A stretch of DNA of 64,000 nucleotides from a virus (taxonomy: Duplodnaviria > Caudoviricetes): positions 18,768-82,767 of IMG/VR virus record IMGVR_UViG_3300021387_000357; one strand, 5' to 3'. The notes beneath the pieces were generated by a model, which searched no databases, was not told where the DNA came from, and worked only from the letters and a program-made list of their open reading frames with translations. How positions within the stretch are numbered: position 1 is the stretch's first letter; every line of letters starts with the position of its first letter. Of the stretch, positions 11,285 to 59,868 are shown one piece after another. The position numbers and the translations under genes were made by a program.

Positions 11285-11445
11285 AAGACAGTAAAAACAG
11301 CAAATATAAATTAATTCAGATGAATTCTTGTTTAATTAAACACTTTTTTGATGGAAGGTTAAGTAAAAGGATTAAAATTTTATTTGTTTTAATTTTATAT
11401 AATCGCCTAAATTATGGGAAAATAAAAAAGGAACTTACTGTCTTG
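11285..11445 (+). ncRNA. ACAGCAA-stem ncRNA copy 1 (Y RNA-like candidate)
   Basis: AAGACAGT/ACTGTCTT 8-bp closing stem followed by ACAGCAA; starts just after promoter 11241-11269, ends 4 nt before tRNA-Asn. Confidence 0.6.
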
Positions 11446-12664: not shown

Positions 12665-12779
12665 AAGACACATACAGCAAAAATACATTGTAGGTTTAGC
12701 CAAAAGGAAAAGGCATATTTAATTTATTAATACTATTATTGGTTCGAATCCAATAACCCACTCACATGTAAGTGTCTTG
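12665..12779 (+). ncRNA. ACAGCAA-stem ncRNA copy 2 with internal tRNA-like D and T arms
   Basis: AAGACAC/GTGTCTT stem, ACAGCAA, D-like AGCCAAAAGGAAAAGGC, T-arm TATTGG-TTCGAAT-CCAATA. Confidence 0.7.
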
Positions 12780-13238: not shown

Positions 13239-13312
13239 GGCCCGGTAGTGGAGCGGTTTAACACAGCTGACTCTAAATCAGCGGAACCTGGGTTCGAACC
13301 CCAGTCGGGTCC
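13239..13312 (+). tRNA. amber suppressor tRNA, anticodon CTA
   Basis: GGCCCGG/TCGGGTC acceptor; GCTGA/TCAGC stem, loop CT-CTA-AA; T-arm CTGGG-TTCGAAC-CCCAG. Confidence 0.92.
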
Positions 13313-13545
13313 CCTCGATAAACATAATCTTTACGCAGATATGTATTATCAAAAAGTTTTTTACCTTTTGTTCTTTAAAAACGTAAAGGTGACTAAAGAA
13401 GTCAAAATGCACTTCTTCCCCTGCTTGGGGTGAAAAGTGGTTATTTAATGATTCCTGCCAGAAGACGAATCATTACCCTCCGATGCGTAAAAAGGATAGA
13501 GGGTGCGAATATCTATCTTGTATAGTGTATCGGAACTATACATTT

Positions 13546-14001: not shown

Positions 14002-14088
14002 AAGATGCATACAGCAATTATTTCAAGGTTAAAACAAAAAATCTGAAAAATTTTTAGTGAGAAAGTTCAAATCTTTCATTGCATCTTG
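14002..14088 (+). ncRNA. ACAGCAA-stem ncRNA copy 3
   Basis: AAGATGCA/TGCATCTT stem, ACAGCAA, internal anticodon-like loop CT-GAA-AA and T-arm GAAAG-TTCAAAT-CTTTC. Confidence 0.7.
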
Positions 14089-19086: not shown

Positions 19087-19413
19087 ATGAAGGTTTGGAT
19101 AGATGATATTCGTCCTATTCCAGAAGGATATGATATCTGGATTAAGAGAGTAGATGAAGCTATTGATTTCATTTCTACTCACAAAGATGAAATTTCTCTT
19201 CTTGATTTAGATCACGATGCTGGTGATTATTTTTGTTATGGCGGAGATTATATTAAAATTTTAGATTGGATGGAAGAGGAAGGTATCTCTATTCCTGTTT
19301 CTATTCATAGCGGAAATCCATATGGTATTCAAAAAATGTGGCAGATAATTCAGCATTGTGGATGGAAATATGTAGAGTCTCCTGATGAATATACGCTTGA
19401 TGTAATTTTATAA
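19087..19413 (+). CDS. cyclic-phosphate-processing receiver-like domain protein
   Basis: KVWIDDIRP...SLLDLDHDAG...IHSGNPYG pattern. Confidence 0.7.
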   Translation: MKVWIDDIRPIPEGYDIWIKRVDEAIDFISTHKDEISLLDLDHDAGDYFCYGGDYIKILDWMEEEGISIPVSIHSGNPYGIQKMWQIIQHCGWKYVESPDEYTLDVIL

Positions 19414-19880: not shown

Positions 19881-19952
19881 CGGGGCGTAGCGTAGCGGTG
19901 ACGCACTAGTTTTGGGAACTAGGTCAGGCAGGTTCGACCCCTGTCGCCCCGA
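19881..19952 (+). tRNA. trnP: tRNA-Pro(TGG)
   Basis: CGGGGCG/CGCCCCG acceptor; loop TT-TGG-GA. Confidence 0.9.
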
Positions 19953-19955
19953 CTA

Positions 19956-20071
19956 AAGACATATACAGCAAAAATAACAAAAAAATTTTGTATCGTGAGT
20001 TCGAATCTCATCTAATGTGCTTAACATTTGTAGCCAAGTTGGAAAGGCAAGAATTTTATTAATATGTCTTG
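19956..20071 (+). ncRNA. ACAGCAA-stem ncRNA copy 4, circularly permuted tRNA mimic (YrlA-like topology)
   Basis: AAGACATAT/ATATGTCTT stem; then T-arm, loop-closed acceptor-like hairpin, D-arm. Confidence 0.75.
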
Positions 20072-20091: not shown

Positions 20092-20361
20092 ATGTTTCAT
20101 AATATTGTAATAGGAAAACCATTAGTTGAACCTTGGGAGCTTATTTCTTCTTCAAGAGAAGAATTTGAAAAATTTGATAAAAGAGATACTCTTTTTACTA
20201 ATGAAAGATTTCTTCCTGCAATTTTAGTTGAAGCTGGAATCGTTCCTTCTCGCGGAGAAGTTAGAAGGAATAAACCTGAATTATGTAAAACGCTAAATGA
20301 ATTGGATTGCCTTTGGGTTAAATGGGGTAAGAAAAAAATTTACATTATTGTTGGAGAATAA
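20092..20361 (+). CDS. standalone S4-like domain resembling the TyrRS C-terminal RNA-binding domain
   Basis: AAGGAG RBS; ILVEAGIVPSRGEVRR...KWGKKKIYII. Confidence 0.6.
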   Translation: MFHNIVIGKPLVEPWELISSSREEFEKFDKRDTLFTNERFLPAILVEAGIVPSRGEVRRNKPELCKTLNELDCLWVKWGKKKIYIIVGE

Positions 20362-20523: not shown

Positions 20524-20946
20524 ATGAATAGTAAAGATAAAGGAAATATTGGAGAAGCAATTGTTCTTGCTTAGTTTGTAAAAAGAAATATAACTGTTTC
20601 AATTCCATTTGGAGATAATGCTAGATATGATTTAATAGCTTAGTTTAATGGAAAATTAAATAAAATTCAAGTTAAATATTGTCATCAAAAGATTAGTGGA
20701 ACAGGTTCTATTTCTTATCCTTGTTCAAGTAGCTTAAATCATACAACAAATAAAGTAAGAACAACTTACGAAAATGAAATTGATTATTTTGCCTTTTATT
20801 TAGTTGAATGGAATAAAGTAATTTTAGTTCCCATTGATGTTATTGGTTCTAAAAAAACTATTATGTTTAGATTAGATACACCAAAAAATAATCAAGGAAA
20901 TTATAACATTGTTTCTGATTATGAATTTGATAAAATATTGAATTAA
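20524..20946 (+). CDS. free-standing PD-(D/E)XK homing endonuclease-like protein (2 in-frame TAG)
   Basis: GNIGEAIVLA*F...YDLIA*FNGKLNKIQVK; ends TAA. Confidence 0.8.
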
Positions 20947-21583: not shown

Positions 21584-21667
21584 AAGATACTTACAGCAAA
21601 AATAATTTTATAAAAAACATTATTAATCTCTTAACAAGATTTAGTCAAAAAAATAGGTAGTATCTTG
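21584..21667 (+). ncRNA. ACAGCAA-stem ncRNA copy 5
   Basis: AAGATACT/AGTATCTT stem, ACAGCAA, internal hairpin AATCT-CTTAACA-AGATT. Confidence 0.65.
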
Positions 21668-22054: not shown

Positions 22055-22119
22055 TAGACATAAACAGCAATAATAATTATGGGATCAACTTTTAATTGAT
22101 ACAGCCAATACGTGTCTAG
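22055..22119 (+). ncRNA. ACAGCAA-stem ncRNA copy 6
   Basis: TAGACAT/GTGTCTA stem, ACAGCAA, internal hairpin ATCAA-CTTTTAA-TTGAT. Confidence 0.65.
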
Positions 22120-22290: not shown

Positions 22291-23778
22291 ATGAATACTT
22301 TTCTTAATCAAATGAAGAAAGATAATAATTTTGCTTATACTGAGAATGGTGCTTTAACTCATAGAACTACTAATTCAAAGGTACTTGATATGTTTGCACT
22401 TGGTGGAGCTTATAGAAATCGTTCTGATGCAGAGGTAATTCTACTTTTTAAAAACGCATTTGAAGAGGACGCTAACCTTGCAATAAAGTGTCTTTTTTAC
22501 CTTAGAGATGTGCGAGGTGGGCAGGGAGAGCGTCGATTCTTTAGAGTTGCATATCGTTGGTTGTGTGATGCTTATCCTGAAACTGCAAAGAAAAATCTTG
22601 AAAACATTAGTGAGTATGGTCGTTGGGATGATCTAATTTATATCACAGAAGGAACAAAGTGTCAGACTGCCGCATTTAAGATTATTAAGCATCAGCTTGC
22701 TCTTGATATTCAGTGCAAAACTCCCTCCCTTCTCGCGAAGTGGATGCCTTCTCAGAACGCATCTAATGCAGATACTAAGAGACTTGGAGTTGCTCTTGCT
22801 AACTTCCTTAACATGACTAGCCGTGAATATCGTAAGACTCTTTCTGTACTTCGTGAGCGTATCAATGTTCTTGAGCGTCTTATGAGTGCAGGTAGATGGG
22901 ATGAAATCGAGTTCGATAAAATTCCTTCTAAGGCTGGTCTTGTGTATCGCAATGCCTTTGCTCGCCGCGACATTCTTGCGAAAAAGTATGAAGAGTTTGC
23001 TAAAAGTGAAAACACTAAAGTAAATGCAAAAACTCTTTATCCTTATGAAATTGTTGAAAAAGCTATTTCAAAAAGGTACAATAATGATCTTAATGATACA
23101 GAAAGACTAATGATTAATAAATATTGGTCTTGTCTTCCTGATTATCTTAATGGTCAAGATTGCAGTATGATGTGTGTTGTTGATACTTCTGGTAGTATGC
23201 ACGGCATGCCCATTAACATTGCAATTAGTCTTGGAATGTATTGTGCTGAAAGAATTGGTAAACCTTTTAAGAACCATTATATCAGTTTCAGTTCAAGACC
23301 TCAGTTAATTTCTATTGAAGGTATTGATTTTGTAGATAAGGTAGAACGAATTTACAGAACCAATCTTTGTGATAATACTGATCTTGAAGCGGTATTTAAT
23401 CTTCTTCTTGCTACGGCAAAAAAGTCGGGAGTAAGAAAAGAAGATATTCCGAAGCATGTGGTTGTTATTTCGGACATGGAAATTGATGCAGGAACCGGTA
23501 ATTGGTATTCAGGTTCTAAAAGATGGACTAAAGAAGGAGCTTCCACTGAAATGGAGAAAATCCGTAAAAAGTGGGCGGCAGAAGGTTATAAACTTCCTCA
23601 TCTAACTTACTGGAATGTAGACGCTAGAAACAATAACATTCTTGACTCTGGTCCTAATGTTACTTTTGTTTCAGGTGCATCACCTGTAATTTTTAAATCA
23701 ATTCTAACTGGTAAAACAGCCTGGGATTTGATGATTGATGTTATTTGCGGCAAAAGATATGAGCCTGTTGTTGCGTAA
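22291..23778 (+). CDS. TROVE/vWA-domain (DUF2828-type, Ro60-related) RNA-binding protein
   Basis: TENGA..., LFYLRDVRGGQGERRFFR, YGRWDDL, LLAKWMPS, vWA MIDAS VVDTSGSM and VISDMEID. Confidence 0.85.
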   Translation: MNTFLNQMKKDNNFAYTENGALTHRTTNSKVLDMFALGGAYRNRSDAEVILLFKNAFEEDANLAIKCLFYLRDVRGGQGERRFFRVAYRWLCDAYPETAKKNLENISEYGRWDDLIYITEGTKCQTAAFKIIKHQLALDIQCKTPSLLAKWMPSQNASNADTKRLGVALANFLNMTSREYRKTLSVLRERINVLERLMSAGRWDEIEFDKIPSKAGLVYRNAFARRDILAKKYEEFAKSENTKVNAKTLYPYEIVEKAISKRYNNDLNDTERLMINKYWSCLPDYLNGQDCSMMCVVDTSGSMHGMPINIAISLGMYCAERIGKPFKNHYISFSSRPQLISIEGIDFVDKVERIYRTNLCDNTDLEAVFNLLLATAKKSGVRKEDIPKHVVVISDMEIDAGTGNWYSGSKRWTKEGASTEMEKIRKKWAAEGYKLPHLTYWNVDARNNNILDSGPNVTFVSGASPVIFKSILTGKTAWDLMIDVICGKRYEPVVA

Positions 23779-58304: not shown

Positions 58305-58649
58305 GTGGTAATAATGAAAATGTTTTATAAAAAAGATAATTATTTGGTTGAAGTTTATCATTTTTTTGAAGATAAAACTGCATTGATTTTTTCTCCATCT
58401 ACCGCAGGACGACAAAATGGTAACGGCTGGGAAAAAGTTAAAATAGGACAGTTAATTCCTGAAGATTATTATGATACTCATAGTAATACTCTTATAAATG
58501 AAAGCATCAAAACAAAAATTAAAAAACGACTTGTTTTAACTCAAGCTGAATGGATTTGCACAGATGGAACTATTTTTAATGATTGTAACAAGGCTATTGC
58601 TCATGAACGTGAGCTAATGGAAAAGGAGAATAATAACAATGCTCAATAA
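58305..58649 (+). CDS. hypothetical protein
   Basis: ORF in operon. Confidence 0.65.
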   Translation: MVIMKMFYKKDNYLVEVYHFFEDKTALIFSPSTAGRQNGNGWEKVKIGQLIPEDYYDTHSNTLINESIKTKIKKRLVLTQAEWICTDGTIFNDCNKAIAHERELMEKENNNNAQ

Positions 58650-59868
58650 GAATAACGAAAGAGAACTCGCATATGTAGTTACTATTGATGCGGTGACTCC
58701 TATTGAAGGATATGATCGAGTTGAACTTGCTCATGTTGGCGGTTGGACTATTGTTGTTGGAAAAGGTGAATTCCATGCGGGAGATCCTGCTATCTATTTT
58801 GAAATTGACTCTAAGCTACCTGAAGTAGAACCTTTTACTAATATGGAATTTCTTGCCAAAAAGAAATATAAAATAAAGACTCAGCGAATGTGCCGGTCAT
58901 TAAGCCAGGGACTTTTAATGTCTGCCGCAAATTTTGGATGGGAAATTCAAGCAGATGGAACTCTTTGGAACCCAAAAGATGGAGATCATGGATGTTATAG
59001 TCCCTACGATGATTCTCGTTTCCTTACTAAGAAACTTAATGTAACTTATTATGTTGCAGAAGATAATGTTCGTAAAGCAAATTCTGATGATAAGTATAAG
59101 AGAATGGCACAACGTCATGGCAAACTATTTTCTCATCAGCCCTTTAGATGGCTTATGAAACGAGATTGGGGTAGAAAATTTCTTTTTGTATTTTTTGGAC
59201 GTAAGAAAGATAAAAAATCTGGTTGGCCTACGTGGGTAACTCGTACTGATGAAGAAAGGATCCAGAATATGCCTTGGATTCTAAATGATAAAGAACCCTG
59301 GATTGCAACTGAAAAAATTGACGGCACTTCTACTACTTTTACTATGAAACGTGGAAAGTGGCCTCACAAAGATGAGTTTTATGTTTGTTCTCGTAATGTA
59401 GTATTTGATAAGCCCGAAAAAACTTGCTTCTATGATACTAATGTTTATACTGAAATGGCAGAAAAATATGATATTTATAATAAGATGAAAGATCTTTTAT
59501 ATAATCATTTTACAGATTGTGAATGGATTACTATTCAGGGTGAAACATATGGACCTGGTATCCAAAAGAGAGATTATCATACTCCAGAGCATGCTTTTAT
59601 GGCTTTTAACTTCATTACTTCTAAAGATGGACGCTGGGGAACTGAAAAGATGGTTGATCTTCTCCAAAAGCATATGGGTATTCCTTGTGTTCCTGTTCTT
59701 AATACTAATTTTATTCTGCCAAATACTGTTGAAGAACTACTTAGTTATGCAACTGGAGAATCTGTTTGTGACCATGATCTTCGCGAAGGAGTTGTATGTC
59801 GTTCAAAAGATGGAAAGAAATCATTCAAAGCTGTTTCTAATGAATTTTTGCTTAAATATCATCAGTAA
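58639..59868 (+). CDS. ATP-dependent RNA ligase (DRB0094/Rnl-type) with N-terminal tRNA-binding OB-like domain
   Basis: TEKIDGTS (motif I), IQGETYG, FMAFN, EGVVCR, FKAVS. Confidence 0.88.
   Translation: MLNKNNERELAYVVTIDAVTPIEGYDRVELAHVGGWTIVVGKGEFHAGDPAIYFEIDSKLPEVEPFTNMEFLAKKKYKIKTQRMCRSLSQGLLMSAANFGWEIQADGTLWNPKDGDHGCYSPYDDSRFLTKKLNVTYYVAEDNVRKANSDDKYKRMAQRHGKLFSHQPFRWLMKRDWGRKFLFVFFGRKKDKKSGWPTWVTRTDEERIQNMPWILNDKEPWIATEKIDGTSTTFTMKRGKWPHKDEFYVCSRNVVFDKPEKTCFYDTNVYTEMAEKYDIYNKMKDLLYNHFTDCEWITIQGETYGPGIQKRDYHTPEHAFMAFNFITSKDGRWGTEKMVDLLQKHMGIPCVPVLNTNFILPNTVEELLSYATGESVCDHDLREGVVCRSKDGKKSFKAVSNEFLLKYHQ

Follow-up and report, generated by a model that had tools for sequence, protein, structure and literature searches.

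A circularly permuted tRNA-like RNA in a phage tRNA island points to a sister class of Y RNAs

Ro60 and its Y RNAs have hitherto been known from one protein lineage, TROVE. At least 710 of 50,697 records of cultured phages, including those of Felix O1-like, Listeria, Campylobacter, Vibrio, Bacillus and cluster L-like mycobacterial phages, encode a second protein with a predicted Ro60 fold, DUF2828, for which searchable papers describe no RNA partner. We analysed an RNA element located within a 64,000-nucleotide stretch of phage DNA (positions 18,768 to 82,767 of IMG/VR virus record IMGVR_UViG_3300021387_000357; hereafter the window). The window is part of a record of 82.8 kb that is 62% complete (G+C content 31%), and it also encodes a DUF2828/DUF7788 protein. 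A first-pass annotation had described the element as a circularly permuted tRNA mimic with the topology of YrlA, a claim about topology and not about membership in YrlA. Based on sequence comparison and a predicted protein fold, we consider the element likely to be a non-coding RNA of the phage and a YrlA-like partner of the DUF2828 Ro60 lineage, forming a sister class rather than being a member of YrlA. This suggests a class of Y RNAs, sister to YrlA, that has not been described before, and for DUF2828 proteins it yields candidate RNA partners that have a defined motif and a tRNA fold backed by covariation. A literature search retrieved no description of this RNA; a mention in reviews (Sim, Wolin, Boccitto, Burroughs) or in the supplement of Chen et al. 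(2014) is still possible.

The element consists of a terminal stem and the unpaired sequence ACAGCAA, together termed the handle, which surround a circularly permuted tRNA-like domain (Table 1). The parts listed by the first-pass annotation (ACAGCAA, an 8-bp stem, GTATC, T arm, acceptor hairpin, TA and D arm) were all present where it had placed them. The D arm has three pairs plus A13-A22 and carries A14, G15, G18G19 and A21, and C48 and G15 of the window copy are able to form a Levitt pair. The 8-bp anticodon-like stem is composed of seven A-U pairs and one G-U pair and is parted from the terminal stem by an internal loop of 17 × 4 nt; the window copy has U32, U33, A37 and A38. The annotation had let the anticodon stem continue into the terminal stem; the stem covaries, but it is not directly continuous with the terminal stem and is not predicted by folding energy. 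Among 26 aligned relatives, CAGC and the last A of ACAGCAA are invariant.

Table 1. Coordinates of the permuted RNA, its parts, its siblings and the proposed protein partner in the window.
Feature	Position	Strand	Remarks
Whole RNA, handle around circularly permuted tRNA-like domain	19956–20071	+	115 nt plus invariant trailing G
Terminal stem, 5′ strand	19956–19964	+	9 Watson-Crick bp; pair probability 0.8–1.0
Unpaired ACAGCAA	19965–19971	+	presumed protein-binding site
Anticodon-like stem, 3′ strand (tRNA positions ~36–43)	19982–19989	+	alternative: competing 5′ hairpin
Variable region GTATC (positions 44–48)	19990–19994	+	C48 at 19994, Levitt partner of G15
T arm	19995–20011	+	5 bp, canonical T loop TTCGAAT; folding and comparison
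Acceptor stem	20012–20030	+	6 of 7 pairs, one U-U, 5-nt closing loop GCTTA, no CCA; folding and comparison
U8-A9, D arm, A26	20031–20049	+	TA at 20031–20032, D arm at 20033–20048, G15 at 20038, GG at 20041–20042
Anticodon-like stem, 5′ strand (positions 27 onward)	20050–20057	+	folding and comparison
Terminal stem, 3′ strand, and invariant G	20062–20071	+	3′ strand at 20062–20070; folding and aligned relatives
tRNA-Pro(UGG)	19881–19952	+	ends 3 nt 5′ of the permuted RNA
Sibling handle RNA 1	11285–11445	+	long A/U-rich insert; directly 5′ of tRNA-Asn
Sibling handle RNA 2	12665–12779	+	normal order, D arm then T arm; miscalled as tRNA-Lys by ARAGORN
Sibling handle RNA 3	14002–14088	+	T arm; miscalled as tRNA-Phe by ARAGORN
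Sibling handle RNA 5	21584–21667	+	directly 5′ of tRNA-Gln
Sibling handle RNA 6	22055–22119	+	minimal; 170 nt 5′ of DUF2828 gene
DUF2828/DUF7788 protein, proposed partner	22291–23778	+	495 aa; Pfam and predicted fold; 2.2 kb 3′ of the permuted RNA

For the comparative analysis, 80 phage loci were fetched around homologs of the window's DUF2828 gene. Stem-plus-ACAGCAA elements occurred 174 times on the gene strand versus 8 times on the opposite strand, and the ACAGCAA motif as such gave 281 versus 99 matches. The permuted order was found in 40 elements, 36 of them distinct, with the tRNA opened in the anticodon loop in 23 (as in the window copy), in the variable region in nine and elsewhere in four; the nine copies opened in the variable region retain a whole anticodon arm 3′ of the D arm. 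Selection of the 36 relatives had required pairing in the T, acceptor, D and terminal helices, and the search patterns had contained U8, GG and the T-loop letters, so that neither these helices nor these letters serve as an independent test; the Levitt pair and the anticodon-like stem were not used in the selection. Positions 15 and 48 were complementary in 36 of 36 relatives (22 A:U, 13 G:C and 1 U:A; shuffle mean 18.2; none among 100,000 shuffles reached this value) and the anticodon-like stem was paired in 136 of 180 cells versus 88.6 with swapped partners, both figures being inflated by kinship among the relatives. Three types of Levitt pair across highly diverged sequences are hard to obtain by descent alone. 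In the alignment of relatives, the outer five pairs of the terminal stem were 98.5% paired and showed compensatory changes, a type of figure that overstates the support, since the rows were preselected on pairing and comprise anticodon-opened copies only; the weight therefore lies on the Levitt pair and on the held-out tests. The RNAalifold consensus contained the terminal, T, acceptor and D helices, with compensatory changes in 21 of 23 pairs.

The held-out set was obtained from all viral contigs with a pattern consisting of the handle, the T-loop core and the 3′ strand and including no pairing rule. It comprised 20 new contigs with 16 distinct elements. The T stem had five of five pairs in all 16, five to seven acceptor pairs together with a full D stem were present in 15 (one element was misparsed), and 14 had a Watson-Crick Levitt pair. 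As judged from these alignments, the element is a real, selected structure.

Taken by itself, the single sequence folded no better than its shuffles (z -1.4), and the case beyond chance is made by the comparative evidence together with an Rfam match, not by single-sequence folding. This match, the best in Rfam, was to YrlA (RF02553), with 28.1 bits and an E-value of 0.014 in 14 kb. The comparison with the YrlA model had been proposed by the first-pass annotation, and its outcome was divided: the model aligned arm to arm, T loop on T loop, acceptor on acceptor and D loop on D loop, but the score stayed below the YrlA gathering cut-off of 69, as did those of the relatives (31–39 bits). The missed cut-off is a weak negative, because the YrlA core of Bxz1, a true mycobacteriophage YrlA, also scored just 32.5 bits. 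The alignment of the arms and the covariation down to the Levitt pair bear out the permuted tRNA fold and its YrlA-like order. At gathering thresholds Rfam recovered tRNAs alone and no other family, and blastn of the element against cultured phages returned only 21-nt T-arm matches.

By the definition of Chen et al. (2014; PMC4201824), a YrlA RNA has the motif GNCGAAN0-1G, the order T-acceptor-D, a Levitt pair with compensatory changes and a TROVE gene no more than 4 kb away. The element shares with them the terminal stem, a conserved unpaired 5′ motif, the variable region, T arm, closed acceptor and D arm, the covarying Levitt pair, a Ro-fold gene less than 4 kb away on the same strand and several sibling RNAs per genome. 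The sequence of the element contains the positions that would be targets for pseudouridine 55 and dihydrouridine. It differs from YrlA RNAs in having ACAGCAA and the trailing G where YrlA has GNCGAAN0-1G, in its candidate partner, which is DUF2828/DUF7788 instead of Pfam TROVE, and in that the point at which the tRNA is opened varies within its family. The Rsr-binding motif GNCGAAN0-1G at the 5′ side of YrlA was found in none of the 36 permuted elements, window copy included. Membership in YrlA fails because this motif is absent and the contig, which is 62% complete, has no TROVE partner. Y RNAs in the broad sense have 80–130 nt, a long terminal stem and a large internal loop (PMC4201824), a description that fits the element with its 115 nt, 9-bp stem and loop of 17 × 4 nt.

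The RNA and the DUF2828 protein travel together. Of 27 phage records retrieved by searching with the RNA, 25 carried DUF2828, including six of six near-complete records, compared with 710 of 50,697 among cultured phages; seven of the 27 overlap with the protein-first set (remainder 18 of 20), the counting was done among partly related phages and the negative controls number two. The two records without DUF2828 are fragments, 28% and 4% complete. Four DUF2828 phages were opened from the cultured list, and in all four the gene had handle RNAs no further than about 4 kb away: two permuted ones in Bacillus phage Thrax1, one permuted RNA in Salmonella phage BPS15Q2, one permuted RNA located 100 nt downstream of DUF2828 in Mycobacterium phage Lumos, and handles without a tRNA domain in Listeria phage LMTA-57. 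A model built from 26 copies gave matches adjoining DUF2828 in Lachnospiraceae, in Mycolicibacterium and in two bins, one gammaproteobacterial and one of Promethearchaeota; of the closer "bacterial" matches, many are probably binned phage contigs. In the Promethearchaeota (Asgard) bin, the permuted handle RNA (L155:5793–5918) is located directly upstream of DUF2828, and the neighbouring genes look like archaeal housekeeping genes. The controls T5 and Bxz1 both have large tRNA islands and neither a DUF2828 gene nor a handle; Bxz1 has instead a TROVE Ro60, the YrlA core and the motif variant GCCGAGAG. T5, whose genome is without DUF2828, contains annotated stable RNAs (L193:6285–9950), some of them tRNA-like, without the handle motif.

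Pfam searches with the 495-aa protein of the window gave DUF2828 and DUF7788 only, and neither TROVE (PF05731) nor vWA_Ro60 (PF25045); the control, Bxz1 gp220, matched both TROVE and vWA_Ro60. A search of the contig, which is 62% complete, with PF05731 returned no match while its controls matched, protein and profile sequence searches against the PDB returned no Ro60, and hhalign to the Bxz1 Ro protein gave a probability of 4%. An AlphaFold2 model built from 40 homologs (pLDDT 81) predicts helical repeats together with a vWA (von Willebrand factor A) domain, a ring-type fold like that of Ro60 with a MIDAS (metal ion-dependent adhesion site). The MIDAS-type residues D298, S300, S302, T363 and D395 are invariant, as are many basic residues. 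With this model as query, Foldseek ranks 1–12 were all Ro60/Rsr structures, and VIA-align gave a Z score of 23.2 for 1yvp (root-mean-square deviation 3.7, 387 aligned, residues 11–476), 12.8 for the Ro60 of phage phiLo (root-mean-square deviation 5.7, 397 aligned) and 12.4 for Deinococcus Rsr. By this prediction, DUF2828 proteins are a second lineage with the same fold as Ro60. The link to Y RNAs that had been drawn from the RNA structure is strengthened by this adjoining protein with its predicted Ro60 fold and by the co-occurrence.

Several described systems resemble the one at this locus. Thermus phage phiLo encodes a Ro60 that, with the Y-like RNAs Yrl1 and Yrl2 of the phage, binds the host PNPase (PMC12135203; PDB 9KOP, 9L5Y). 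Common to both are a phage-encoded Ro60-fold ring with adjoining Y-like RNAs and the structural match to the DUF2828 model, whereas the phiLo RNAs carry CGAA, the term tRNA-like is not used in PMC12135203 and phiLo Ro60 and DUF2828 show no sequence match. In Deinococcus, the RNAs Yrn1 and Yrn2, which occur with Rsr and PNPase (RYPER; PMC4201824), are co-transcribed with tRNA, and the tRNA-like part with its normal D-then-T order resembles the sibling at 12665; Yrn1 retains an animal-type Ro helix, in contrast to the permuted order of the element. A homolog of the window protein is gp130 of Felixounavirus Bas63, with 31% identity over 494 columns and the same Pfam families. It was reported to be Ro60-like and to counter the ppl defence, and its authors guessed that Y RNAs are among the downstream tRNA cluster, suggesting annotated tRNAs and naming no RNA (bioRxiv 10.1101/2024.10.10.617714). 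In the Bas63 genome (MZ501086) we found four handle RNAs between annotated tRNAs, with motifs at about 82081, 82248, 82703 and 82790, the last of which is permuted. As gp130 has a phenotype in laboratory E. coli, the role of a tRNA-mimic Y RNA, which was left open by Chen et al., becomes addressable. The Bas63 handle RNAs are located downstream of gene 130 (L085:20070–20910; ~82070–82910) and are partly overlapped by small hypothetical open reading frames (ORFs) on the reverse strand, which may be spurious.

As a working model, we propose that the RNA would be cut out of a polycistronic tRNA transcript and that the DUF2828 ring would bind the stem and ACAGCAA in the way Ro60 binds the motif in the 5′ strand of Y RNAs. 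We consider binding of the handle by the ring likely. Having no anticodon loop and no CCA, this copy could neither decode nor be charged and would present a nuclease-resistant elbow, which might act as a gate of the ring or as its tether to a host ribonuclease or to a tRNA-binding defence protein, so that phage RNA would be protected or turned over during infection. Gating or tethering by the elbow is the least certain step, for which we see roughly even chances. In a bolder proposal, which we regard as doubtful, DUF2828 and the ACAGCAA-handle RNAs would make up a second lineage of Ro ribonucleoproteins that has a recognition code of its own and in which the YrlA topology was reached independently and repeatedly by capture of tandem tRNA halves opened at different points; the particle would serve as a modular phage counter-defence, and the RNA would switch between the tRNA-like and the 5′ hairpin state to gate the ring.

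Besides the overlap and the kinship stated with the co-occurrence counts, several observations weigh against the element being a YrlA-like partner of DUF2828. The pair probability of the 8-bp stem in the window copy is about 0 (-15.7 versus a minimum free energy of -19.7 kcal/mol), and the minimum free energy structure replaces this stem by a competing 5′ hairpin that is 4 kcal/mol better. In the held-out set, only 7 of 16 copies had at least four of five pairs in the anticodon-like stem, and this stem was missing from the RNAalifold consensus. Because of these last two results we regard the D/T elbow and the sealed acceptor as firm on comparative grounds and the anticodon-like stem as likely but variable; it covaries, is not favoured in the window copy and is the least certain of the helices. 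On the protein side, the kinship of DUF2828 with Ro60 is one of predicted fold, at 11–16% identity and with no TROVE or Ro60 match at the sequence level. Finally, gp130 alone helped T7 against ppl, and RNAs were not mentioned as having been moved (bioRxiv 10.1101/2024.10.10.617714). The anti-ppl activity therefore does not need the Bas63 RNA, for which regulation or tethering is a likelier role than that of an indispensable half of this activity.

The same experiment would suit a free tRNA-shaped decoy. Its handle would be a signal for processing or stability, and host tRNA-targeting enzymes would be soaked up by an RNA that does not bind DUF2828 and is merely co-inherited with it in tRNA islands. 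The elements indeed lie inside tRNA arrays and next to tRNA ends, and binding of the RNA by DUF2828 is so far a deduction. We nevertheless consider a decoy unlikely, as the motif is found directly beside DUF2828 with few or no tRNAs nearby in Lumos and in the bacterial and archaeal loci, and as it is absent from the tRNA islands of the two phages without DUF2828, T5 and Bxz1. That the element is just a diverged YrlA, with a canonical TROVE Ro60 of phage or host as its binding protein, is very unlikely: a different invariant motif stands in the place of GNCGAAN0-1G, the 62% complete contig has no TROVE match and the RNA tracks DUF2828 and not TROVE. What speaks for it is the common topology, the rank of YrlA as best Rfam match, the equally low score of the Bxz1 core and the incompleteness of the contig.

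The permuted order also recalls the tRNA genes that are permuted in red algae and archaea, in which the 3′ half precedes the 5′ half, a loop joins the acceptor ends and working tRNAs are formed. If the element were such a gene, its transcript would have to be cleaved, joined at the anticodon and opened at the acceptor. None of the tRNA core positions is missing, the window copy has suitable bases at 32, 33, 37 and 38, the phage encodes an Rnl2-type RNA ligase with a PHA02142 OB domain (58639–59868), which is also a possible RNA-repair partner, and 10 of 12 long acceptor loops of relatives start with NCCA. Red algal and archaeal permuted tRNAs have a conserved anticodon loop, whereas in the family of the element the loop consensus, Y32-U33 together with R37, is present in the window copy but in only 5 of the 23 anticodon-opened relatives. 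The acceptor loop measures merely 2–6 nt in 15 of these 23 and the window copy has no CCA, most handle RNAs are without complete tRNA parts, and the opening point varies between copies, all of which makes a functional tRNA gene highly improbable. Two tandem tRNA genes that left a functionless remnant (a 3′ half followed by the next 5′ half) trapped in a repeat would give the same order, and the search pattern did catch such cases. The NCCA loops and a second perfect 5-bp upstream partner of the 3′ anticodon strand, present in 13 of 23 copies versus 2.6 expected, agree with descent from tandem tRNA genes; the second partner could also be a switch. The halves covary in acceptor stem, Levitt pair and anticodon stem, and this holds in phages of Bacillota, Actinomycetota and Pseudomonadota, which calls for selection on the fold that they form together; neither half is close to any tRNA of the window phage (best 21/29 and 16/26). 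A remnant is scarcely credible in view of this covariation, which largely refutes it; tandem genes may account for the origin of the element, not for its persistence.

A YrlA-like partner of DUF2828 thus remains the reading we prefer, and the element is not the only handle RNA of the phage. Six stem-plus-ACAGCAA elements are present on the + strand between 11285 and 22119, the other siblings having normal order or no tRNA part (Table 1). The ARAGORN calls of a tRNA-Lys (12690–12763) and a tRNA-Phe (14012–14085) correspond to handle RNAs and not to tRNAs. Some annotated phage tRNAs are therefore actually handle RNAs, an error that may occur often when phages are annotated. In two Lachnospiraceae arrays directly upstream of DUF2828 (L174:5500–6010 and L189:5460–6010), intact tRNA bodies have the handle inserted in their anticodon arm.

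The tRNA island of the window spans 11.4–22.0 kb with about 20 genes. In the closest relatives, too, the permuted copies are located directly 3′ of a tRNA, and tRNA-Pro and the permuted RNA would likely share one precursor transcript. A promoter scan gave 19 matches versus 19.2 expected, which is at chance, and no promoter is claimed. A search of the contig, the controls of which gave matches, detected no RtcB; the search for Rnl1 is uninformative, having given no match in any sequence tried. About 20 nt 3′ of the element, with the ribosome-binding site adjoining its end, an ORF of 89 aa (20092–20361) has no Pfam and no PHROG match and an Atlas lead (0.90) to S4/TyrRS C-terminal-like phage proteins. 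A protein with a cREC_REC cyclic-phosphate processing receiver domain (19087–19413) is encoded within the island 540 nt upstream of the element, and a PD-(D/E)XK endonuclease (20524–20946) with two in-frame TAG codons follows directly 3′ of tRNA-Lys. TAG is a sense codon in this phage, as ORFs cover 0.82 with code 15 versus 0.45 with code 11, and a tRNA with a CUA anticodon is present at 13239–13314. The DUF2828 gene has a conserved frame without in-frame TAG in the window phage and in the full-length homologs checked (39 homologous loci), two of which end at TAG, and could be translatable before recoding begins.
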